The notes beneath the pieces are model-generated. The model was given only the letters and a program-made list of their open reading frames with translations. It was not told the DNA's origin and did no database searches. The translations under genes and the position numbers were made by a program. A stretch of DNA of 10,338 nucleotides from a virus (lineage: Duplodnaviria; Heunggongvirae; Uroviricota; Caudoviricetes), in the IMG/VR virus record IMGVR_UViG_2534681772_000012, positions 1-10,338 of that record. One strand, written 5' to 3'. Shown piece after piece: positions 1 to 10,338 of the stretch (positions within the stretch are counted from its first letter, which is position 1; each line of letters starts with the position of its first letter).

Positions 1-70
1 TCACAAAAACGTAACCACACTGCCAATAGCCAGAGAAATATAATTTTTTTTGCGATTTTTTAGAACTGAC

Positions 71-130
71 ACAACGTGAAACAACGAGACACCACGACGA
101 ACAACGGCGAACAATCTGGAACAAACTTGA
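71..130. repeat. Six tandem 10-bp units with ACAACG-like core (ACAACGTGAA/ACAACGAGAC/ACCACGACGA/ACAACGGCGA/ACAATCTGGA/ACAAACTTGA), helical-turn phased; putative protein-binding array upstream of alpA
   Basis: Read directly from sequence: units start every 10 bp from position 71. Function is inferred from the phasing and the position in the AT-rich leader upstream of the alpA-like gene. Confidence 0.4.
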
Positions 131-410
131 TTAACATCTGACTGACACCCTAAAAAGTTGATTTTCAGTCGTTTTACTGGCTTTTTGTACATTGGCGAAT
201 CACTCTTAAAAACATGTAAAAAAGGCGTAAAAACAGAATTTTATGCCTTTGCACCACAATGAATTAAAAGAGTTTTTATTCTCATTACCACACTTCTGTA
301 AAATGACCGCCGCCAGTGTTTGCCATTCCATAAACACCCTGACACAATCCGACGCACCACAACACAATAGGACACCAAATAACTCTTTAAGAAATATCAA
401 AGGGGGAATT

Positions 411-599
411 GTGTTAAGCACAGATCGCTTTATACGTGAAAAAGAATGTCAGCAACTTACAGGCCTGAGCCGTTCATGTCGGTACCGCCTGGAAAAAACC
501 GGACAATTCCCATCACGGCGTAAGCTCGGCGGTCGTTCCGTTGGCTGGTCTTTATCCGAAGTTCTGGCATGGAAGGAAAGCTGCGAGGCAGTTCACTAA
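411..599 (+). CDS. alpA: AlpA-family (phage Vis/Xis-like HTH) transcriptional regulator
   Basis: C-terminal 63 aa of ORF 243..599 (MLSTDRFIREKECQQLTGLSRSCRYRLEKTGQFPSRRKLGGRSVGWSLSEVLAWKESC) match the AlpA/Vis family length and HTH pattern. GTG start at 411 follows RBS AGGGGG (401-406); the in-frame extension back to 243 has no RBS and looks like leader. Stop TAA 597-599. Confidence 0.8.
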   Translation: MLSTDRFIREKECQQLTGLSRSCRYRLEKTGQFPSRRKLGGRSVGWSLSEVLAWKESCEAVH

Positions 600-651
600 T
601 CAGGCTGGCGGCACACCGCCGCCACCCATCCACTAATACAGAGATCTAACC

Positions 652-1842
652 ATGAATACTGGATATTCTCCCGAACAAGGGCGGGGCTTCGTTCGTCCTG
701 AAAAACAGAATCTGCAAAATTTTGCCGAAATTATTCCGGTTATTTCCGGCCTTACTGGCGGGAGTGAAACCAATATTGTTAACGCCAGAGCGTTGCAGAT
801 GTTTGATGATAAAAAGGGAGTAAATTTAACTTACACCCCTGACGGCAATCAGAATATGAGCATTATCTCTGAGTCAGGTTTCTACAAACTAATAAAAACA
901 AAAAGCGCCCCGTTCCCGGAGCGCCTTTGTGAACAATTAACCTACTGCGCAAAAAATGAATCTGAGCAGTGGGATTATATCAACCGTGTGGCGAAGCGCC
1001 ACAATTGCCGGATAACAGGCAAAACAAAGGCCACCCGCTACGGTGGCCCCTCGACACAAGCTACACGTTATCCCCAACGCATGAGCATCACCAACAATGC
1101 CACATTTGCGGCTGGTGGGCAATGTGATCAGTCAGATTTGGTTCGTTCCAAGGTTTGCAACGAGAGCTTTTTCCTGTGCTCTTTAAGGAATTTCTCAAGA
1201 GCAAAAGCACATGGCGCGAATCTTTCTGATTCATGCTCTATCTTTCTGCGCCGTCTTTTCCGTGCCGGTGATAATGTTTTGGTCAATTCTTTATCGGTCA
1301 TTGTGTTGTCCTGCATAGCAATGCGCCGTAATACCTTACACCACGGCGCTGATGGTGATTACTCTGGTTCTTTGGTCTTGCGACGCTGGAGTTCTTCGCG
1401 TGCAACGGTGACAAGCTGCCCGATTTCTTCCGCTGCTTTGATGCCGATTTGTTCGACCTTAGCCAGGGCATCCAGTGACGACACAAGGGGATTTTCTCCG
1501 CTGCCTTCTGCTTGGCGGCGGGCTATTTCTCCGCGCATGGCGGTTACGATAAATCCGGCATTGCTTTCGCCGTCCAGCTTAACGGATTCCATCCCTTGCA
1601 TAACATCTAGTGGGACTCTGACAGTTGTCAGTTGTGATTTTGCGTTTTTGTTAGCCGTTGCCATTTCTGAAACTCCTAATCATCGGTGTGTTTCAGTATA
1701 CACAAAAAAAGAAATACAAAAAGCCTTGACGTGTGTTTCATGCGCTCATAACATGAAACACACCAAAAGAATTGTTGAAATACAAAGAGCAACGCCCCGC
1801 AGTGCCGGAAACACATACGGGGCGTCTAACCACCAACGATAG
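652..1842 (+). CDS. Questionable ORF; at most an N-terminal remnant (~652-900) of a disrupted gene, faintly Bro-N/Rha-like (IISESGFYKLI)
   Basis: ATG-to-stop ORF from the track. After ~aa 90 the translation is Ser/Cys/Arg-rich, as expected for an antisense read. It runs antisense to two protein-like minus-strand ORFs and through two minus-oriented terminator hairpins. No convincing RBS before ATG 652. Confidence 0.2.
   Translation: MNTGYSPEQGRGFVRPEKQNLQNFAEIIPVISGLTGGSETNIVNARALQMFDDKKGVNLTYTPDGNQNMSIISESGFYKLIKTKSAPFPERLCEQLTYCAKNESEQWDYINRVAKRHNCRITGKTKATRYGGPSTQATRYPQRMSITNNATFAAGGQCDQSDLVRSKVCNESFFLCSLRNFSRAKAHGANLSDSCSIFLRRLFRAGDNVLVNSLSVIVLSCIAMRRNTLHHGADGDYSGSLVLRRWSSSRATVTSCPISSAALMPICSTLARASSDDTRGFSPLPSAWRRAISPRMAVTINPALLSPSSLTDSIPCITSSGTLTVVSCDFAFLLAVAISETPNHRCVSVYTKKEIQKALTCVSCAHNMKHTKRIVEIQRATPRSAGNTYGASNHQR
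891..924 (-). terminator. Putative rho-independent terminator for minus-strand transcripts
   Basis: GC-rich imperfect hairpin 905-924 (GCGCCCC/GGAGCGC, one mismatch) followed on the minus strand by TTTTTGTTTTTATT (reverse complement of 891-904). Confidence 0.4.
1021..1048 (-). terminator. Putative rho-independent terminator for minus-strand transcripts
   Basis: Perfect 7-bp stem GGCCACC (1029-1035) / GGTGGCC (1042-1048) with a 6-nt loop, followed on the minus strand by TTTGTTTT (reverse complement of 1021-1028); about 80 nt downstream of the stop of minus ORF 1128..1301. Confidence 0.45.
1128..1301 (-). CDS. Small basic hypothetical protein (~57 aa, MTDKELTKTLSPARKRRRRK...)
   Basis: Minus ORF 1128..1316; the second in-frame ATG (1301) has a weak AGGA-like RBS. 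Lies just downstream of the RHH-like regulator and upstream of the minus-strand terminator. Composition is protein-like but there is no recognisable family. Confidence 0.3.
   Translation of the reverse strand: MTDKELTKTLSPARKRRRRKIEHESERFAPCAFALEKFLKEHRKKLSLQTLERTKSD
1359..1664 (-). CDS. Putative ribbon-helix-helix-like DNA-binding regulator (candidate repressor of the island), 101 aa
   Basis: Strong RBS AGGAG 8 nt upstream of ATG (minus 1677-1673). Balanced protein-like composition; N-terminal beta-strand-like TTVRVPLDV followed by helix-loop-helix (MQGMESVKLDGESNAGFIVTAMRGEIARRQ) resembles the RHH/Arc-MetJ fold. Divergent from the rightward operon promoter, the classic regulator position. 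Confidence 0.6.
   Translation of the reverse strand: MATANKNAKSQLTTVRVPLDVMQGMESVKLDGESNAGFIVTAMRGEIARRQAEGSGENPLVSSLDALAKVEQIGIKAAEEIGQLVTVAREELQRRKTKEPE
1686..1763. promoter_or_regulatory. Divergent promoter/operator region: sigma70-like promoter TTGACG (1726-1731) - 17 bp - TAACAT (1749-1754) for the rightward operon, overlapped by a perfect 12-bp inverted repeat GTGTGTTTCATG (1731-1742) / CATGAAACACAC (1752-1763); a third GTGTGTTTCA half-site at 1686-1695; leftward -10-like TATACT (complement of 1696-1701)
   Basis: Hexamers and repeats read directly from the sequence; assignment as operator for the adjacent regulator is inference. Confidence 0.5.
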
Positions 1843-1861
1843 CAAGATTATCGAGGCTGCT

Positions 1862-2068
1862 ATGAGAAATCATACCATACACCCGCAAGGGCGGGACTCG
1901 CACAACCTGAATAAATACATCTGGCGTTTTATCGCCCTGAGTACGGCACAACCGCGCGTGATTACCATTGAGGCCACCAGCGAACAGGAAGCCCGTCAGC
2001 AATCACCGGCTGGCTGCGTGATGGTATTCGCCGCCCGTATTCGTCAGGGGGTGCACCATGTGCAATAA
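1862..2068 (+). CDS. Small protein, probably Icd-like (host cell division inhibitor Icd-like family of P4-type satellites)
   Basis: ATG 1862 with GAGG RBS; the track ORF uses an upstream TTG at 1772. Motif pattern YIWRF-ALS...EATSEQEAR...FAARIRQ matches my memory of Icd-like proteins. Stop overlaps the next start (ATGTGCAATAA). Confidence 0.5.
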   Translation: MRNHTIHPQGRDSHNLNKYIWRFIALSTAQPRVITIEATSEQEARQQSPAGCVMVFAARIRQGVHHVQ

Positions 2069-2525
2069 CACCCGTCCGGACGCAGCCGCCGAAGCAATCA
2101 AAACACTGATTGATGCGCTGATTGATATTTCTGTTATCGCGGACAGGGCGCATAAGCACGCTACCAGTGAAACAGAATATGCCGGGGCTTTCGTTCCTCA
2201 TTCGCTGGCGGTTATGCAACTTAGTGCGGATATGGCGCTGAATGAGGCCAAAGCCATCCTGATTGCTGATTGTGAAAATGGGGGGGGGGTTATGCGTGAT
2301 GATCGTTTTAATTCCCTGAAACAGGAATTTTCCGGCGTTCCTGATGATGCGGCTGATGCGCTTTCGTCAATGCCAGAGCTTATTAGAGCGGCTTTTTTCT
2401 TACTTTCCACGAGAGAATATAAATCAACGGGGCTTGATGTACTGAATATCGCCGCCGATTATGCGGAATATGTGGCAGAGGCGCGTTACAGAAGAAAATT
2501 TCCTGAGGATGTAAGCCATGCGTGA
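2058..2525 (+). CDS. Hypothetical protein (155 aa) containing an internal G10 homopolymer
   Basis: ATG 2058 preceded by AGGGGG RBS; translationally coupled to neighbours on both sides. No recognisable family. G10 run at 2280-2289 encodes GGG and is followed by an in-frame ATG at 2292. Confidence 0.55.
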   Translation: MCNNTRPDAAAEAIKTLIDALIDISVIADRAHKHATSETEYAGAFVPHSLAVMQLSADMALNEAKAILIADCENGGGVMRDDRFNSLKQEFSGVPDDAADALSSMPELIRAAFFLLSTREYKSTGLDVLNIAADYAEYVAEARYRRKFPEDVSHA

Positions 2526-2751
2526 TATTTACCACGAAACAATAGACCGCGCATTTCTTGCACTTTCTCACAGTGAAAACATGCTGGAAATATTGCGCAT
2601 ATGGCTTGAAACACTTGGCGACAATGAACGCGACAAACAAAAATCAAGAATTGCCACGGCATTAATAACGCTTCTTGAGCCTGTAATAATGGAACTGCAA
2701 GAAATAGATCTATTGCACGACAGATATAAAGAACAGCACACCGGAGAATAA
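2518..2751 (+). CDS. Hypothetical protein (77 aa)
   Basis: ATG 2518 overlaps the upstream stop by 8 nt; GAGGA RBS; protein-like composition; no recognisable family. Confidence 0.55.
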   Translation: MRDIYHETIDRAFLALSHSENMLEILRIWLETLGDNERDKQKSRIATALITLLEPVIMELQEIDLLHDRYKEQHTGE

Positions 2752-2756
2752 AAATA

Positions 2757-3056
2757 ATGAAACTTAAATATTCTGGCTTAACTGCCAGTGGCAACACTCA
2801 CCCTAAATTTACGCGCGGTGATATTTACCGCGACCAGTACGGCGGCACGGTAATGATTAAGGGCGTGGAAGAACGGCGCGTAATCTACCGCCGTGAAGGT
2901 TACGAATATGATTGCGTGATGCCTGTTTATCAGTTCCGGTGTGATTTTTCTCTGGTACAGACCGCGCCGCATAACGTGCCCACCAGCAACGCCAGGGCAC
3001 GGGCAAACATCCAGAAGCTGAAAACCATGATTAACGGATTCAGGGGCAAGAAATGA
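2757..3056 (+). CDS. Hypothetical protein (99 aa)
   Basis: ATG 2757 with GGAG RBS; stop overlaps the rep start (ATGA at 3053-3056); no recognisable family. Confidence 0.55.
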   Translation: MKLKYSGLTASGNTHPKFTRGDIYRDQYGGTVMIKGVEERRVIYRREGYEYDCVMPVYQFRCDFSLVQTAPHNVPTSNARARANIQKLKTMINGFRGKK

Positions 3057-4468
3057 AAAGCGCACCGAACTTAAAAAAACAGCCTTACGACAAAATGACC
3101 GAAGTCATTATTTTTGCGGGTAGTGATGCCTGGGCGCACGCGAAACAATGGCAGGAGCAGGACGGGCGACTTGCTGGCGACAATGTTCCGCCTGTATGGC
3201 TGGGAGACAGCCAGCTTGACGAACTGGCAGGCCTGAAAATTATCGACGATGGTCGCTATTGTGTCCGACTGTACAAGGCAGGCCACATCAAGCCGTCAAA
3301 TATTAATGCCATCGGGCAAAAGCTGGCGGCGGCAGGTGTACGGGATGCGAATTATTACCCTGAGGGAATGCACAGTCAGAAGCTGGAGAACTGGCACGAC
3401 TACCTGCAACGGATCCGCGAACAGGCAGAGCGCGGGGAAATACTTACTGACGAGCAATACAGCCAGCGAAAAACCACGCTACCAATGAGCATTGGATCTG
3501 CAGGGTACGACACACAGCTTGATTATGTCGTTAAGGGCGTGATTCCGGCTAATTCATTGTGCAGCACATACGGCGCGAGCGGTTCCTATAAATCGTTCCT
3601 CGCGTGTTCCTGGGCGTGTCATGTTGCCACGGGTCGCCACTGGGGAGGTCGCAGGGTGGCGCATGGTTCGGTGATGTATGTTGTCGGTGAAGGTGGCATT
3701 GGTGTCCCCCGCCGTATCAAGGCATGGGAAATCGTTAATGATGAACGGGTGAAAAATCTGTACCTGGTAAACCGCCCGATTTTTCCTGCAGCCCAGTTTG
3801 ATGTTGATGAAATGGTTATCGCATCCCGCCAGGTTGAACGGGAAACGGGTAAACCGGTACGCATGATTATTCTGGATACGCTGGCGCGTTGCTTTGGCGG
3901 TAATGATGAAAATGACGCGCGGGATATGGGGGCGTTTATCCGTGGATGTGACGAACTGAAACGACGCACAGGGGCCACGGTGCTGGTGGTTCACCATTCC
4001 GGCAAGGATGAAACAAAAGGGGCGCGTGGTTCCAGTGCATTTCGTGCATCTCTGGACGCTGAGTACCGGATCCGCCGCGAAGGCGCGGACAGTGAGGCCC
4101 TGGTTATCTCCTGCACCAAAATGAAGGACGCGGAGGAACTGAAAGAGGCTGCATATGATTTACGTGTGGTGGAGCTTTTTACCGACGCTGACAAGGAGTT
4201 AATCACGTCGCTGGTGGTTGTGGATAAGCCGCGCCCACCCGTTGAACTGGAGCGCATCGAGGAGGCCGGAAACAAGACGGAGAATCACGCCGCACTATGG
4301 GGCTGTATCCGGTCACGCACACAGCGCGGCGATAAATGCACTATCCCGTTGTTGCGCGATGATATGAAAAAGCTGGGGTATGAGATGAAAAACTTCCGGC
4401 GCTGGCTGTACAAGCTGGAAAGAGACGGCGTTATCGCTATTGACGGTGATGATGTGCGCCCACTGTAA
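3053..4468 (+). CDS. Replication initiator / RepA-like RecA-fold (AAA_25-type) ATPase, 471 aa; no primase domain recognised
   Basis: Walker A-like GASGSYKS and Walker B-like hydrophobic run ending in D (RMIILDTL) in the central region; RBS AGGGG; an iteron array follows the stop codon immediately, as in PICI/SaPI-type pri-rep/ori units. Confidence 0.8.
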   Translation: MKSAPNLKKQPYDKMTEVIIFAGSDAWAHAKQWQEQDGRLAGDNVPPVWLGDSQLDELAGLKIIDDGRYCVRLYKAGHIKPSNINAIGQKLAAAGVRDANYYPEGMHSQKLENWHDYLQRIREQAERGEILTDEQYSQRKTTLPMSIGSAGYDTQLDYVVKGVIPANSLCSTYGASGSYKSFLACSWACHVATGRHWGGRRVAHGSVMYVVGEGGIGVPRRIKAWEIVNDERVKNLYLVNRPIFPAAQFDVDEMVIASRQVERETGKPVRMIILDTLARCFGGNDENDARDMGAFIRGCDELKRRTGATVLVVHHSGKDETKGARGSSAFRASLDAEYRIRREGADSEALVISCTKMKDAEELKEAAYDLRVVELFTDADKELITSLVVVDKPRPPVELERIEEAGNKTENHAALWGCIRSRTQRGDKCTIPLLRDDMKKLGYEMKNFRRWLYKLERDGVIAIDGDDVRPL

Positions 4469-4669
4469 AAAGTGAGGCGCAAAAGTGAGGGGATAGCAGG
4501 AACTGAACAAAAAGCAACCGCGCCCCTCACTTTTCAATCTGTATATAGGCTCAAAAGTGAGGAATAAAAAACACATTGAAAAACAACATATTAGAATCAC
4601 AAAAAAACAAGGTTGGAAATCATGTGGGGAGCTTAAAAAGTGAGGCGAAAAAGTGGGGAGTAGTGGGGA
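4467..4669. repeat. Putative origin of replication: iterons (consensus AAAAGTGAGG) flanking an AT-rich core
   Basis: Copies at 4467-4477, 4481-4490, 4523-4534 (inverted), 4553-4562, 4635-4645, 4647-4657 (degenerate), plus degenerate 4621-4630 and 4661-4668; AT-rich stretch 4563-4620; directly 3' of rep. Confidence 0.6.
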
Positions 4670-4921
4670 ATGACCAGAAAAAGCAGAGATAAAACAGCAC
4701 CAAAATATCGCGCATTAGACATGACAGAGCACGCCTTAAAGGTGGCAATCAGAACGATAGACCGCCACGCCGGAGAAGGATACGCGAAAGCGCATCCCGA
4801 ACTGATAAGCGCATTCATGACCACGGCGGCGGCAAATTTTGCCACACTGACAGAACGGGAGATTGCCGAAGCGGAACAGGTGACAACCATCAACGTTAAA
4901 ACCGGAGAGCAGACAGCATGA
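4670..4921 (+). CDS. Hypothetical protein (83 aa), translationally coupled to ssb
   Basis: ATG 4670; stop TGA overlaps the ssb ATG (ATGA at 4918-4921); no recognisable family. Confidence 0.5.
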   Translation: MTRKSRDKTAPKYRALDMTEHALKVAIRTIDRHAGEGYAKAHPELISAFMTTAAANFATLTEREIAEAEQVTTINVKTGEQTA

Positions 4922-5340
4922 CAGCACAGATAGCGGCTTACGGGCGGCTGGTGGCTGACCCGCAGTTAAAGACCACCAGCAAGGGTACACAAATGACGAT
5001 GGCGAGTATGGCGGTCCCACTTCCGTGCAGCCAGGCAGATGACGGAACGGCGACGATGTGGTTATCCGTCCTGGCGTTTGGCAGACAGGCCGAAGCACTG
5101 GCAAAGCACCGCAAGGGTGAACTCCTGAGCGTGGCGGGTAACATGCAGGTAAGCCAGTGGACAGGCCAGAACGGCGAAACGCGGCGGGGCTGGCAGGTTA
5201 TCGCAGACAGCGTAATCAGTGCGCGAACGGCGCGACCGGGCGGCAAAAAAGGTCAGCAGGGGCAGGCCACTGACGCACTGAACAGGGCAAAACAACAGTC
5301 GGGGAATGATGATCCGTACGGCGATAATATACCGTTTTAA
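4918..5340 (+). CDS. ssb: Single-stranded DNA-binding protein (short, 140 aa)
   Basis: GGAGA RBS; OB-fold-like N-terminal pattern; Gly/Gln-rich linker; acidic C-terminal tail ...DDPYGDNIPF resembling the SSB signature DDDIPF. Confidence 0.65.
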   Translation: MTAQIAAYGRLVADPQLKTTSKGTQMTMASMAVPLPCSQADDGTATMWLSVLAFGRQAEALAKHRKGELLSVAGNMQVSQWTGQNGETRRGWQVIADSVISARTARPGGKKGQQGQATDALNRAKQQSGNDDPYGDNIPF

Positions 5341-5357
5341 ATTCTGCAAACAAAAAG

Positions 5358-5386
5358 ATGCCGGAAAAAAATAGATTTTCCGGCAT
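5358..5386. terminator. Hairpin with 11-bp perfect stem (ATGCCGGAAAA / TTTTCCGGCAT, 7-nt loop); terminator-like, T-tract only on the minus-strand side
   Basis: Read directly from the sequence, 18 nt after the ssb stop. On the minus strand it is followed by CTTTTTGTTTG; on the plus strand there is no T-tract. Confidence 0.4.
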
Positions 5387-5551
5387 GCTACATAAATCCC
5401 GACCAAAGGAAGTAAATACATTAACACGAATTATCAGCACTGAAGTTGTCACGGCATATTTTATACAACATTGCACTTGGTTGCATGTATTCGCATAGCA
5501 GACATCGGTAATAGAATATATTCACAATTATTTGTAATGAATGTAAAGAGG

Positions 5552-6598
5552 ATGAGTATGGTTGATTTATATTCGCCTACACAGCTTGTGCAGGTGGCTA
5601 ATGCTGAAGATGTGCAAAAAAAATTAAATGCGTTGTTTACCAGTTTGTTTTTCACTCGCTCGGTAATGTTTGAATCGAGAGACATTATTCTTGATACGAT
5701 CGACGATCCAAATATCCCGATCGCGGCGTTTTGCTCTCCTATGGTGGGCAGTAAAGTTTCACGAGATGAGGGATACGAATCAAAAACAATTCGCCCTGGC
5801 TATATGAAACCGAAAAGCAGCATTGATCCAAATAAGTTAGCTGTGCGCCCTGCTGGTGTATCACCTGAACAATACAATGCTTTTGGGGCGCGTAATATTA
5901 AAGTTAAACAGGCGATTGTAAATCAGGCTAAAGCTATACGTGCACGTATTGAATGGCTTGCTGTTCAGGCAATCACAACGGGGAAAAATATCATTGAGGG
6001 CGATGGTATTGAACGTTATGAACTGGACTGGAATATAAAACCACAAAATATTATCACGCAGTCTGGCGGTGCTGAGTGGTCAGGTAAGGATAAAGAAACT
6101 TTTGATCCAAATGATGATATTGAGAGCTACGCAGAATTTAGTGAGGGCGTCACTAATATCATCATTATGGGCGGTAATGTATGGAAGAAATACCGTTCAT
6201 TCAGAGCGATAAAAGAGGCTCTGGATACCCGCCGTGGTTCTAATTCCGAACTGGAAACGGCCCTTAAAGACCTTGGTGATTCGGTGAGTTTTAAAGGGTA
6301 TATGGGCGATGTTGCGATTGTTGTTTACAGCGGACGTTATACCGACGAGGACGGAACTGAAAAACATTTCCTTGATCCTGATTTGATGGTGCTTGGCAAT
6401 ACGGCTCTTCAGGGGATTGTCGCCTATGGCGGTATTCAGGATCCGGAGCTAACCCGAATGGGGCTGACTAAAGCCGAACTTGCACCGAAAAACTATATTG
6501 TGCCTGGTGATCCGGCTATTGAGTACGTACAAACGCACTCTGCACCACAGCCAATACCGGCCCGCATCAATCGTTTTGTTACCGTTCGCATTGGCTAA
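5552..6598 (+). CDS. Lambda gpE-like major capsid protein
   Basis: Translation from MSMVDLYSPTQL aligns along its length with my memory of lambda gpE (MSMYTTAQLL..., ITQSGG-EWS-DK-T-DP-DDIE-YA, TRRGSNSELETA-KDLG, GDVAIVVYSG-Y, MVLGNT, GDPA). Start 5552 by homology; ATG 5558 has better RBS spacing from AAGAGG. Stop TAA 6596-6598. Confidence 0.85.
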   Translation: MSMVDLYSPTQLVQVANAEDVQKKLNALFTSLFFTRSVMFESRDIILDTIDDPNIPIAAFCSPMVGSKVSRDEGYESKTIRPGYMKPKSSIDPNKLAVRPAGVSPEQYNAFGARNIKVKQAIVNQAKAIRARIEWLAVQAITTGKNIIEGDGIERYELDWNIKPQNIITQSGGAEWSGKDKETFDPNDDIESYAEFSEGVTNIIIMGGNVWKKYRSFRAIKEALDTRRGSNSELETALKDLGDSVSFKGYMGDVAIVVYSGRYTDEDGTEKHFLDPDLMVLGNTALQGIVAYGGIQDPELTRMGLTKAELAPKNYIVPGDPAIEYVQTHSAPQPIPARINRFVTVRIG

Positions 6599-6607
6599 GG
6601 GGGAGCA

Positions 6608-6850
6608 ATGGCTACTCATTACACTGAACTCATGTCTGGCACTGAAGCACTGGTTACTACGCTGGGGATATTTTCAGCCAATAAAGGGGTAATACCTGCG
6701 TTTACGCCACTGATGCAGGAAGATGCAACTGGTGCGCTAGTGGTATGGGATGGAACGAGCGCAGGCAAAGCGGTTTATGTTTCCGCTGTACAAATCGACA
6801 CTGAACCGCCCCGGGAATCCTGGAGACTAAACTCCCTGAGAAAGAGGTAA
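6608..6850 (+). pseudogene. Lambda gpD-like head decoration protein gene, 3'-truncated by IS629-like insertion
   Basis: RBS AGGGGGAG; TPLMQEDATGALVVWDGTSAGKAVYVSAV matches the lambda gpD region [29 protein letters not shown]. Homology ends at 6801, where the IS inverted repeat begins; the last ~16 codons of the ORF are IS-derived. Confidence 0.7.
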
Positions 6851-6855
6851 ACAGG

Positions 6856-7182
6856 ATGACTAAAAATACTCGTTTTTCCCCCGAAGTCCGTCAGAGGGCG
6901 ATTCGTATGGTTCTGGAAAGTCAGGGCGAATATGACTCACAGTGGGCGGCAATTTGTTCCATTGCCCCAAAGATTGACTGTACACCGGAGACTCTGCGTG
7001 TCTGGGTACGCCAGCATGAGCGGGATACCGGAGGCGGTGATGGCGGGCTCACCACCGCTGAACGTCAGCGTCTGAAAGAGCTGGAACGTGAAAATCGTGA
7101 ACTGCGCCGCAGTAACGATATCCTTCGCCAGGCTTCCGCTTATTTTGCGAAGGCGGAGTTCGACCGCCTCTGGAAAAAGTGA
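6856..7182 (+). CDS. IS3-family transposase OrfA (HTH/leucine-zipper part), IS629-like
   Basis: 108 aa, [30 protein letters not shown]...[36 protein letters not shown]; ends at the frameshift window. Confidence 0.9.
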
Positions 7183-8069
7183 TGCCACTGCTGGATAAGC
7201 TGCGTAAGCTGTACGGGGTCGGACCGGTATGCAGTGAACTACATATTGCCCCGTCAACGTATTACCACTGTCAGCAACAGCGACATCATCCTGATAAACG
7301 CAGTGCCCGTGCGCAGCGCGATGACTGGCTGAAGAAAGAGATACTGCGCGTATACGATGGGAATCATCAGGTATACGGTGTGCGTAAAGTCTGGCGTCAG
7401 TTGTTACGGGAAGGAATCAGGGTAGCCAGATGTACAGTGGCGCGCCTCATGGCGGTTATGGGACTTGCCGGTGTTCTCCGGGGTAAAAAGGTCCGCACTA
7501 CCGTCAGCCGGAAAGCCGTTGCCGCAGGCGACCGCGTAAACCGTCAGTTTGTGGCAGAACGTCCTGACCAGTTGTGGGTGGCTGATTTTACTTACGTCAG
7601 CACATGGCAGGGGGTCGTCTATGTGGCGTTCATCATTGATGTGTTTGCCGGATACATCGTGGGGTGGCGGGTCTCATCGTCTATGGAAACGACATTCGTG
7701 CTGGATGCTCTGGAGCAGGCGTTATGGGCCCGTCGACCGTCCGGCACAGTCCATCACAGTGATAAAGGTTCTCAGTATGTATCGCTGGCCTACACACAGC
7801 GGCTTAAGGAAGCCGGATTACTGGCATCAACAGGAAGTACTGGTGACTCGTATGACAACGCGATGGCGGAGAGCATCAATGGCCTTTACAAAGCGGAGGT
7901 AATACACCGTAAGAGCTGGAAAAACCGGACAGAAGTGGAACTGGCCACACTCACGTGGGTGGACTGGTATAACAATCGACGATTGCTGGAAAGGCTGGGC
8001 CATATCCCACCGGCAGAAGCAGAAAAAGCTTATTATGCTTCCATCGGAAACGATGATCTGGCAGCCTGA
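7179..8069 (+). CDS. IS3-family transposase OrfB (DDE catalytic domain), IS629-like; expressed as OrfAB fusion by -1 frameshift
   Basis: 296 aa with DDE-type motifs ([31 protein letters not shown]); overlaps orfA in the -1 frame. Confidence 0.9.
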
Positions 8070-8123
8070 GTTCACAGATAAAACACTCTCCAGGAAACCC
8101 GGGGCGGTTCACAAAGTGTTTTT

Positions 8124-9698
8124 TCATCGCACACCGCCTTTTTCCTGATGAAAGCGGCAACGAGCAATCACGGATTGAATTTCAAATTGTGTGGTTTCAT
8201 GGATTGAAATAAGTGGATTGCGGGCGTTACCAACACTGTCTGAAATGGAAATCAATTCATCGACTTCTTTAACTACACTCTCCAGCACCGCCTGATGGTC
8301 ACCATCAGTAAAGGGGCGGAAATACAGGCAACCGTAGCAGCAGCGTACTTCACTGAATGGGCATTTGCCATCATCTCTGGAGCAACCGCCAATCCCATCA
8401 TGCAACTCATCACCGATTATGCCGACCACGCGCTGGTCTTGCCATTTCGTTGAAGAGGTCAGTTCACCAGTCAACATCATAGCCACCATGTTTTGCCATA
8501 CCGGATTGATACCCAATGCTTTGGCTCGAATCAGTGCCAGTGCAGGCGTCGCCAGAATGTAATACTTGGCAACAGTAAGGGAGCTATGTCCCAGAATATG
8601 CGCAATTTCCTCGGCGCTGACCCCTTGCATAGCCAGTGAATGCCCCACGTTGTGGCGCAAGTCGGTCGGGGTAATGGTTGGCAAAGCCGCTTCGCCACGC
8701 TTTACGGCTGCCTGATAATCTGGCGGACTGAAACAGAGGAAGGCCTTGTTAATCGCTCTGGACACATTAAACGGTGCAGAGTTACTAAATTCAAATAGCT
8801 TGCCATCAGGTTTTAGTTGCGCTCGCTCGATATAGTGCCTAATCAACGCGCCGATTTCAGCTGGAATCGCCAAAAACAGACGTTCAGTCGTTACGTGCCG
8901 CTGTTTGGCGTAAGGAAGGAGTAAGCTATATCGTATTAATCCGGTTTCGGAGTTTCGGGTATCAATACGTAAATCTTTTACCGCCAGCTTGGCCAGTTGT
9001 ACCGGTCGGGCACCGGTGACATACGTCAGTCCCAGAATTACTGCATCTCGCATGGTGTTCAGACTGTAGTTTTCGCCATACCGAATCGCCACAGCCATTT
9101 CAAACAAGCCTTTACTGATCATGTTTTTTTCGAGGGGATCCAGAACATGATCAATTTCCTGATAGATTCCCCAGTCATGGGAGTGCGGGCGAGGGATGAA
9201 TTCGAGGTCTTCATAATCTTCGAGGGTAAAACCAGGGAATGCTTCGGTACAGAGGATTTTTAGGCCGAAAATGATAAAGTAGAAATATTGAGGTTTAATT
9301 TCCTGAGTTTCGAGGTAATCTTTCAACACCGTAAAAGTGAAAGCAGATTTGCTTATGCAATGATCAGTTGCCAAAGACCACGCATGGAGTACCCCAGGAA
9401 CCTGAGCTGGACACTTGGCAGATGCATAATGGAAGCAAATATATTTGATTAATTGGTTGCTGATTTTATCCTGACGAAAGTGGGCATAGCAGCGGCTTCC
9501 TGAATAATCGAATACCCAACTGTCACTTGTTGAGCTGATATATTTGTCATCAAAATGATCTGCCGATTTAAGATAAATACTAACTGGTATATTAACCTTT
9601 AAAATACTCTCAACAAATACAGGTGTGTAAATGTTGCTGTTCGACGCATTTAACTGTTTATTGATTCGACTCATATGCACTCCATTCATCGCATACAT
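8124..9698 (-). CDS. Tyrosine recombinase / phage-integrase-family protein, large (516-524 aa) with Cys-rich C-terminal region
   Basis: Catalytic-motif pattern in the central part: GARPVQLAKL (Arg box), DLRHNVGHSLAM (H-x-x-R), LGHSSLTVAKYYI (His/Tyr nucleophile box). The best RBS (GGAG) precedes the third in-frame ATG at 9674, so the true start may be 9674. Stop is 12 bp from the IS629 end. Confidence 0.75.
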   Translation of the reverse strand: MYAMNGVHMSRINKQLNASNSNIYTPVFVESILKVNIPVSIYLKSADHFDDKYISSTSDSWVFDYSGSRCYAHFRQDKISNQLIKYICFHYASAKCPAQVPGVLHAWSLATDHCISKSAFTFTVLKDYLETQEIKPQYFYFIIFGLKILCTEAFPGFTLEDYEDLEFIPRPHSHDWGIYQEIDHVLDPLEKNMISKGLFEMAVAIRYGENYSLNTMRDAVILGLTYVTGARPVQLAKLAVKDLRIDTRNSETGLIRYSLLLPYAKQRHVTTERLFLAIPAEIGALIRHYIERAQLKPDGKLFEFSNSAPFNVSRAINKAFLCFSPPDYQAAVKRGEAALPTITPTDLRHNVGHSLAMQGVSAEEIAHILGHSSLTVAKYYILATPALALIRAKALGINPVWQNMVAMMLTGELTSSTKWQDQRVVGIIGDELHDGIGGCSRDDGKCPFSEVRCCYGCLYFRPFTDGDHQAVLESVVKEVDELISISDSVGNARNPLISIHETTQFEIQSVIARCRFHQEKGGVR

Positions 9699-10085
9699 GG
9701 GAAAAGGTTGATTTCAGGGCTTCGTTATCAATCACAATTCGCTGAAGATTGGCCGTATTAGCCTGCTGAGATAGAAATCTTTTAGCGTAAAGATCAGGCA
9801 TATGGCTATTGTGACTCCAACCGCCAAGTAGCCGTAATTCATCCTTGGCTTCATCCATCAATCCAACGATAGAAAAGTCTATGGCTGCCAAGTGTGAGTT
9901 GGCCTTAATTTTTTGAAGTTTATCACGATAAATACGTTGAAGTGTTAAATAAGCCCAAGTATGCCGCGTTATATGAGGCGAGATGCTTTCAATGGCATCA
10001 TAATATTCATCTTTTTTATATTCAGGATACTGCACACTCATAATGTCATCAATACGGGTAAAGATATCATAGACTGCATGGTATG
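9658..10085 (-). pseudogene. C-terminal catalytic fragment of a second tyrosine recombinase, 5'-truncated by IS2
   Basis: PHITRHTWAYLTL (H-x-x-R box) and LLGGWSHNSHMPDLYAKRF (His...Tyr box) present; N-terminal domains absent. The first ~9 codons of track ORF 9658..10113 (MSGDSGGQS) are encoded by the IS2 terminal repeat. Its 3' end overlaps the start of the downstream recombinase. Confidence 0.65.
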
Positions 10086-10338
10086 TAGACTGGCCCCCTG
10101 AATCTCCAGACAACCAATATCACTTAAATAAGTGATAGTCTTAATACTAGTTTTTAGACTAGTCATTGGAGAGCAGATGATTGATGTCTTAGGACCGGAG
10201 AAACGCAGACGGCGTACTACACAGGAAAAGATCGCTATTGTTCAGCAGAGTTTTGAACCGGGAATGACGGTCTCCCTTGTTGCCCGGCAACACGGTGTGG
10301 CAGCCAGCCAGTTATTTCTCTGGCGCAAGCAATACCAG
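10086..10338 (+). mobile_element. IS2 (IS3 family) left end, partial; continues beyond the window
   Basis: TAGACTGGCCCCCTGAATCTCCAGACAACCAATATCACTTAAATAAGTGATAGTC... matches my memory of the IS2 terminal repeat and leader; followed by the IS2 orfA start. Confidence 0.85.
10177..10338 (+). CDS. insC: IS2 transposase OrfA (InsC-like), 5' partial at window edge
   Basis: ATG 10177; translation [54 protein letters not shown]... matches IS2 OrfA as I recall it; ORF open to the window end. Confidence 0.8.

Follow-up and report, generated by a model that had tools for sequence, protein, structure and literature searches.

Two overlapping recombinase genes between IS629 and IS2: a probable relic of a GInt-type genomic island and its relation to dif

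A stretch of 10,338 nt of caudoviral DNA (IMG/VR virus record IMGVR_UViG_2534681772_000012, positions 1 to 10,338; hereafter the window) carries two overlapping tyrosine recombinase genes enclosed by the insertion sequences (IS) IS629 and IS2, which raises the question of the kind of mobile element these genes derive from. Based on the comparison with intact loci, positions 8112-10085 (minus strand) are probably a non-functional relic of a GInt-type genomic island. Its parent apparently represents a divergent branch of the GInt class that is characterised by conserved four-cysteine (C4) modules and by a family-wide targeting of the XerD arm of dif.

The recombinase remnant and the intact operon in E. 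coli

The remnant is flanked by a complete IS629 (6802-8111) on one side and by the end of an IS2 (from 10086) on the other. Both listed open reading frames (ORFs; 9658-10113, 151 aa, and 8124-9698, 524 aa) are located on the minus strand, and together with the IS ends they bear out the overlapping same-strand recombinase pair that had been described in the initial annotation of the window. The overlapping arrangement is not due to chance since the two-gene pattern recurs in 113 E. coli genomes and at 51 loci in other genera, the latter found in a scan of one genome per species.

According to a megablast search against a database of 5426 complete E. coli genomes the homology of the window to intact loci runs from 8112 to 10085, and this segment occurs at approximately 100% identity in the 113 genomes, where it is part of a four-gene operon at the head of an island. 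Gene A encodes a protein of 466 aa (WP_001388361) and gene B a protein of 516 aa (WP_000086929), both annotated as 'site-specific integrase' in RefSeq, while the products of genes C (788 aa, WP_000716059; 9650-12016 in locus L001) and D (144 aa, WP_001214166) are both annotated as 'hypothetical protein'. The four genes overlap by 17 nt, 4 nt and 1 nt in turn. In the copy of ECONIH4, ginD is cut short by an IS5. The operon is situated at one end of the element; behind it come variable cargo of 10-30 kb and then the far end, which is rich in A+T. Element sizes in E. coli range from approximately 13 to 35 kb.

The third recombinase-fold gene, the small fourth gene and the cargo of the intact copies confirm that the window harbours the remnant of a separate multi-recombinase mobile element, as had been proposed. 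A third recombinase or cargo had been suspected beyond the IS2. Both exist in the intact locus, but they are located downstream, beyond the IS629.

The same loci bear on the possibility that the two genes are common prophage integrases beside an attachment site and that one of them has become a pseudogene. The Pfam Phage_integrase match, the RefSeq label 'site-specific integrase' and the phage-like genes in the left part of the window would agree with such an origin. However, a hybrid IS629 is all that joins the phage-satellite-like DNA to the recombinase genes, the two being separated by 200 kb in the closest genome, and the operon of the intact loci is accompanied by no phage genes but just by defence and miscellaneous cargo. 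The intact loci refute this explanation and leave it with a negligible probability, in agreement with the earlier view that these are not simple phage integrases.

In the window, the ginA-like gene is preserved as a 3' fragment (9658-10085, minus strand) that comprises residues 326-466 of 466 and the stop codon and is identical to the corresponding part of WP_001388361 in L001. Its 5' part has been replaced by IS2, as had been noticed before, although the retained portion is not the catalytic C-terminal half of the gene but its last 141 codons, equal to 30%. The listed 151-aa ORF is chimeric: its first nine codons are IS2 sequence, since the left inverted repeat of IS2 starts at 10086, and the native sequence begins at 10085.

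The ginB-like gene (8124-9674, minus strand) is intact and encodes 516 aa with an N-terminal domain, a catalytic domain and a C-terminal extension containing an invariant C4 cluster; its product is 100% identical to WP_000086929. The ATG at 9674 is preceded by GGAG 5 nt upstream, corresponds to the RefSeq start and coincides with the position where the homologues begin, and it is probably the true start. An alternative in-frame ATG at 9698 leads to the 524-aa ORF. The overlap between the two genes, previously given as 17-41 bp, thus amounts to 17 nt with the start at 9674, whereas 41 nt applies to the longer ORF only. The stop codon of ginB overlaps the ATG of a ginC-like gene (ATGA), of which the first 16 nt (ATGAAAAAACACTTTG; 8112-8127, minus strand) are present and the rest has been removed by IS629.

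Protein family alignments showed R236, K279, R365, H366, W414 and Y424 to be invariant in A (16 sequences). The fragment in the window retains R365, H366, W414 and Y424 and has lost R236 and K279. Because this 141-aa fragment had no match in Pfam or NCBIfam, its identity was taken only from the intact locus.

Protein B, in the form of the listed 524-aa ORF, matched PF00589 (E=2.6e-10, residues 212-381), and R223, K257, R340, H341, H363 and Y372 are invariant among 18 family members with identities down to 38%. In its C-terminal extension C431, C438, C446 and C449 are likewise invariant across these 18 homologues, so the Cys-rich C-terminal segment recognised in the initial annotation is real. 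The AlphaFold model of B (mean predicted local distance difference test score 73.5) is confident at residues ~13-165 and 176-375 and poor at 376-458; due to this low confidence no fold could be assigned to the Cys-rich region. Foldseek aligned the model with Cre, XerA, XerH, IntI and the Tn1549 Int over 320-360 columns. The roughly 200 extra N-terminal residues ascribed to B were therefore an overestimate, as the model aligns with two-domain recombinases and much of this part is the usual core-binding domain. Judged by the model, the true additions would be a small beta-rich N-terminal part and a C-terminal extension of about 140 residues.

The C family (17 sequences) shares the invariant residues R250, K294, H506, R509, H510, R532 and Y541 as well as four invariant cysteines (C662, C671, C677, C683). 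PF00589 was matched by eight of its 17 members (best E=1.5e-5), and the motifs align with those of the Tn1549 Int (TGFR...; HIPRH...; GR...Y.H), which identifies C as a genuine, if divergent, recombinase. All three proteins look catalytically competent as judged by the preserved Arg...His/Arg...Tyr signature, and B and C probably have a zinc-binding module in common. A partial match to NF041502 'integrase_1' in NCBIfam (96.7 bits versus a cut-off of 350, C-terminal part only) was not used. No match in Pfam, NCBIfam or PDB was obtained for D.

Relationship to the GInt class and to other multi-recombinase elements

Members of the GInt class are defined by their ginABCD operon together with cargo that varies, a 3' end rich in A+T and insertion at specific sites (PMC5385486). 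As reference we used the GInt of E. coli O157 Sakai (ECs_3512-3509), to which the comparison was limited. Protein A is similar to GinA according to BLASTP (2e-16) and to hhalign comparisons of the family profile with the Sakai protein (99.5%, E=3.5e-22, 373 columns). The corresponding values were 1e-4 and 94.3% (E=1e-7) for B and GinB, and 6e-8 and 98.8% (E=1.3e-16, 414 columns) for C and GinC, while all BLASTP cross-pairs between A-C and the Sakai Gin proteins had E values above 0.1. These results identify A, B and C at the sequence level as position-for-position homologues of GinA, GinB and GinC (ECs_3512/3511/3510).

The 5' end of the intact element, like that of described GInts, holds three tyrosine-recombinase-fold genes and a small fourth one, behind which come variable cargo and a short 3' end rich in A+T. 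Shared with them are furthermore the site-specific insertion with a short direct repeat at the flanks and the lack of conjugation genes combined with defence cargo in E. coli (PMC10121019). The element differs from them by the invariant C4 cluster in B and C and by its target, which is the XerD arm of dif instead of the ABC-transporter, ssb or nrd targets of described GInts.

Recombinase-in-trio (RIT) and Tn554-like elements had been suggested as the family of origin in the initial annotation. RIT elements consist of three recombinases and are not known to have a conserved fourth gene. A remnant of a RIT element or of a Tn554-family transposon would be in line with the same-strand overlapping tyrosine recombinase genes and with three recombinase-fold genes in the intact locus, and one large recombinase, a small last gene and a site-specific insertion are also features of Tn554 (discussed in PMC10214605). 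However, Tn554 (tnpA, tnpB, tnpC) comprises two recombinases and TnpC rather than three recombinases and a small gene, and it resides in Firmicutes hosts. The only significant positional homologues that were found are GInt proteins, RIT and Tn554 being judged by their described architecture. Since gene order, the fourth gene and positional homology favour GInt, an origin from a RIT element or Tn554 appears very unlikely. Thus, the notion of a multi-recombinase element was correct, but RIT and Tn554 are mere analogues.

[quoted passage not shown] SEs also contain four core genes including three recombinase-fold proteins, and weak terminal inverted repeats around a short spacer (PMC10214605). 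Protein B, moreover, weakly matched the NCBIfam model of GmtY (16.9 bits). In SEs, however, the second gene (tfp) encodes a non-catalytic protein without the RHRY motif (PMC10214605), whereas the second protein of the present operon has invariant R, K, R, H and Y residues, and none of the six host genomes checked is contained in the complete list of SEs (tfp-srap).

The GmtY match does not come near its cut-off of 340 bits, and A, B, C and D did not match GmtZ or GmtX in NCBIfam; furthermore, GMT elements have two recombinases, not three, and GmtX is a small StbA-like protein. Taken together, the operon does not show the order intA-tfp-intB-srap with a non-catalytic second protein, which speaks against an SE, and the scores of A-D against the GmtY, GmtZ and GmtX models speak against a GMT, so that membership in either family is highly improbable. 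GInt is the best-matching class, to which RIT, Tn554, SE and GMT are inferior in fit.

The insertion site at dif

In E. coli the element is inserted precisely at dif, with yneL and hipA as neighbours. Upstream of gene A, the sequences of three different contexts part at one point, which corresponds to the canonical E. coli dif GGTGCGCATAATGTATATTATGTTAAAT. The next 141 nt inward belong to the element since they were detected in only 115 of the 5426 genomes.

The borders were determined by comparing the empty site of K-12 (dif, yneL-hipA) with ECONIH4 and strain 162.2. In dif orientation the empty site reads ...TGTATA TTAT[GTTAAAT]CATGTCTGAG..., the ginA-side border ...TGTATA TTAT[GTTAAAT]TTAGTCCGTCGG... 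and the far border ...CACTCAACATAA[GTTAAAT]CATGTCTGAG.... Both borders and the empty site have only GTTAAAT in common, which makes up the outer 7 bp of the XerD arm. The ginA side regains a full dif. The far border is no dif-like site, as it retains the native sequence only from GTTAAAT outward and has ATAA in place of TTAT as the inner four bases of the XerD arm. The far-end sequence is as frequent among the genomes as the gin end, and both ends co-occur in ~113-115 of the 5426 genomes. The far 100 nt have an A+T content of 73% as compared with 54% for the whole element.

The search for inverted repeats delimiting the element, as proposed earlier, revealed no clear ones, but the 7-bp direct repeat in the XerD arm of dif and weak subterminal inverted GTTCAT motifs. 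Of 38 distinct ends, 33 have a TTCAT that starts exactly 21 nt inside, with the first 16-20 nt after the XerD arm being variable; at the far end in E. coli it is found 22 nt inside. Motifs of this type, weak, subterminal and inverted, have also been described for the ends of SEs and Tn554 (PMC10214605). Neither a second dif-like site on the cargo side nor a terminal inverted repeat was found in L001, L002 and L004-L007. Two direct repeats, ATGAACAAAGTAACCGAC and ATGAACTAAATGACCGAC, are located upstream of gene A, in the part that separates its start from the dif-proximal end (L001 14980-15090), and could be candidate binding sites of a recombinase or regulator.

The cleavage positions of XerC and XerD lie at the borders of the central region of dif (restated in PMC5357621). 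A crossover within the XerD arm thus speaks for recombinases encoded by the element, which we infer to carry out the integration at the edge of dif. They would recognise the XerD arm and its flank, and strands would be exchanged between dif and a circular form, either inside GTTAAAT or at its edges. The circular form would be expected to contain the junction ...CAACATAA-GTTAAAT-TTAGTCCG.... A circular form and strand exchange have been shown experimentally for Pseudomonas GInts at other targets (PMC5385486).

The association with dif extends beyond E. coli. Homologues of B were detected in Pectobacterium, Dickeya, Klebsiella, Citrobacter, Enterobacter, Aeromonas, Moraxella, Acinetobacter and Vibrio, and the A-B-C-D module is preserved in most of 40 loci from other genera, including Citrobacter, Vibrio, Moraxella, Acinetobacter and Aeromonas. 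Among 34 loci with sufficient upstream DNA, 27 have a dif-like site immediately upstream of A, at a distance of 1.4-2.2 kb from B. This site combines the XerC arm of the respective host with an XerD arm that deviates in one position at most, and it is found in the same orientation. Four further loci have such a site ~4.2-4.6 kb upstream, and the remaining ones show partial matches.

Near-identical or related copies were also encountered in contigs labelled Chryseobacterium sp., Chloroflexota metagenome-assembled genome (MAG) and Candidatus Kurthia MAG (L016, L050, L054). The copy in L016, which is 96% identical to the E. coli protein and linked to an enterobacterial dif, points to contamination or mis-binning of these assemblies.

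Instead of a GInt, the island might represent an integrative mobile element that makes use of Xer recombination (IMEX), such as CTXphi, TLCphi, the gonococcal genetic island and EludIMEX-1. In this case the host's XerC and XerD would act at dif, and the three recombinase-like proteins would have another function, for example in activation, directionality or maintenance. Like these elements, the island is inserted at dif and leaves a functional dif at one border. It always adjoins a dif-like site whose XerD arm is perfect or nearly so, and the neighbouring XerC arm and central region vary with the context, including the site TGTACGCATAA-TCTATC on a plasmid. Other dif-integrating elements are present at the same sites, among them filamentous prophages, which are true IMEXs, and a DUF3653/XafT-like gene.

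Contrary to an IMEX, however, the element has three recombinase-fold proteins of its own, its far junction is not dif-like, and the crossover appears to fall into the outer XerD arm and thus outside the central region cut by XerC and XerD. The catalytic residues of A, B and C are invariant across 30-90% identity. In addition, all four gin genes are needed for GInt recombination in Pseudomonas (PMC5385486). Taking these points into account, a dependence on the host's Xer recombinases seems unlikely. An identity with the EcloIMEX or EludIMEX of Enterobacter was considered as well; the corresponding papers describe Xer sites only, at setB-yeiP, and not the gene content.

We rather propose that the remnant originates from an undescribed, widespread GInt-like lineage whose own three catalytically intact recombinases insert it at the outer edge of the XerD arm independently of Xer, rebuild dif and load defence genes (cyclic oligonucleotide-based antiphage signalling system, CBASS) near the terminus. 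The proposed lineage would range across Enterobacterales, Moraxellaceae, Vibrionaceae, Aeromonas, Shewanella and Marinobacter, and two of its three recombinases would carry a C4 zinc-type module. This proposal is tentative, and we give it slightly less than an even chance. No description of a three-integrase island targeting dif was found in the open-access literature.

Several points weigh against the reading of the island as a GInt that integrates at dif by its own recombinases. The repeat shared by the flanks is exact and 7 bp long, whereas described GInts carry imperfect direct repeats of 10-17 nt. Published GinC proteins lack the first Arg or the Tyr (PMC10214605, PMC5385486), both of which are present in C. 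GinD is a small, TnpC-like protein with a helix-loop-helix; protein D showed no similarity to the GinD of Sakai in BLASTP or hhalign and resembles it in size and position only.

The published catalogue of GInts by Idola et al. (2023) includes the ginC-ginD pair of the Sakai element (PMC10214605, Additional file 10). The copy in ECONIH4, however, is missing from the ginC-ginD blocks that its PSI-BLAST search lists, while another GInt of ECONIH4 is contained, so that the lineage is absent from the catalogue for at least one genome. A search of the SE and GInt catalogues for the RefSeq protein and host genome accessions yielded one match, which was this different GInt, absence from the GInt catalogue being weak evidence. 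The lineage seems to have been outside the reach of the PSI-BLAST search, which fits with the dissimilarity of D and GinD.

Furthermore, strain 162.2 has AACC instead of TTAG beside the core (L009 18630-18640) in an otherwise 99% identical element; by analogy, this patch could be a trace of an exchange of attachment-site sequences as reported for GInts and SEs. The sole plasmid copy, finally, appears to be truncated at the far side, its far end apparently having been removed at an IS1. It is located on the IncF plasmid pLD39-1-134kb (L004, 33903-75876), where the operon and part of the cargo lie beside the dif-like site mentioned above, which has a different XerC arm and central region. This copy may have arrived by IS-mediated transfer or by Xer-mediated cointegration.

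The XerC side of these dif-like sites is occupied by further elements. Genes encoding ISNCY-family transposases were found directly next to it in three unrelated contexts, namely the E. coli plasmid (L004 23234-24580), E. coli A29 (L007 23239-24636) and Citrobacter (L013 6987-8390), which suggests that this insertion sequence itself targets dif-like sites. In TW10590 tandem filamentous prophages with Zot-like, pII-like and GspD-like genes are located XerC-side of the same dif (L002 15237-26086). Thus, the dif locus hosts Xer-exploiting phages in addition to the GInt-like island. Strain 97.3 has a prophage remnant encoding a protein with a TolA C-terminal domain in this position (L001 15280-16343). 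In Vibrio tasmaniensis a gene encoding 149 aa with weak matches to HTH_29 and DUF3653 was detected just outside the dif of the island (L012 7842-8291). DUF3653 is a domain of the Xer activation factor of TLCphi.

Cargo, decay of the window copy and implications

The cargo of the islands varies by strain and includes CBASS, helicase or restriction-like genes and Tn3/IS debris. According to PADLOC, the islands of A29 (NZ_CP028746; L007 9898-15132) and TW10590 (L002 1-5931) carry a complete type II CBASS consisting of a cyclase, E1-E2, JAB, a SAVED-HNH effector and an exonuclease (all E<1e-80); in TW10590 it is split by an IS21-family element. A helicase/nuclease similar to type IV restriction enzymes is encoded at the far end. 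This cargo agrees with the report that GInts bear defence systems in E. coli (PMC10121019).

The window copy, by contrast, has lost the fourth gene, the cargo and both ends of the element, and its ginA and ginC are truncated. With ginB as the sole intact, orphan ORF and without ends, partners or cargo the remnant cannot move.

Two insertion sequences account for its borders. The IS629 (1310 bp, 6802-8111, plus strand; orfA 6856-7182, orfB 7179-8069) has the terminal repeats TGAACCGCCCCGGG at both ends and no target-site duplication, its flanks being CAA on the gin side (8112-8114) and CAC on the other side (6799-6801). The left end of IS2, comprising the inverted repeat and the start of the first ORF, occupies 10086-10338 on the plus strand and continues past the edge of the window. 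The left inverted repeat TAGACTGGCCCCCTGAATCTCCA begins at 10086, where TAGACTGGCCCCCTGAATCTCCAGACAACC marks what we take to be the end of IS2. Consistent with this assignment, 10086-10338 was matched in thousands of E. coli records by megablast, and similar copies are annotated as 'IS3-like element IS2 family'.

The DNA beyond the IS629 (1-6801, plus strand) belongs to an unrelated island resembling a phage satellite, in which the IS629 interrupts the head-decoration gene at 6801. This island contains genes encoding a RepA-type helicase (3053-4468), a protein that binds single-stranded DNA (SSB; 4918-5340) and a major capsid protein (in the ORF 5471-6598).

In TW10590, the closest genome, positions 1-6801 are 100% identical to 4002147-4008948 between abgR and smrA, where the satellite island is intact with its own integrase and small terminase subunit, approximately 200 kb away from the gin remnant. 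TW10590 lacks the IS2 in ginA. Its IS629 copy, which shows no mismatches to that of the window, is situated inside ginC with a clean CAA duplication, followed by the rest of ginC and then ginD. Because the flanks in the window do not match (CAC/CAA) and the two loci are 200 kb apart in TW10590, the IS629 junction arose either when two IS629 copies recombined or when the assembly was joined at this repeat.

The decay of the window copy accordingly comprises three events. IS2 removed the first 325 codons of ginA together with the dif-proximal end, and IS629 cut ginC after codon 5. The recombination between IS629 copies, or the assembly join, replaced the rest of ginC, ginD, the cargo and the far end with the satellite island.

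As a dead fragment the window itself offers little gain beyond illustrating the erosion and reshuffling of islands by IS629 and IS2 in E. coli resembling enterotoxigenic strains. The lineage proposed here would be of wider interest. The dif site is universal, essential and highly conserved, and to our knowledge it has so far been known as a target of elements that borrow XerCD. If the proposal is true, it would account for a hotspot of defence islands at the replication terminus, and the GInt class would gain a variant that has C4 modules and whose three subunits all appear to be catalytic. One would then have to ask how these insertions are compatible with dimer resolution by FtsK/XerCD and with true IMEXs at the same site. 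Finally, the lineage would provide a conserved, portable integration site for engineering.

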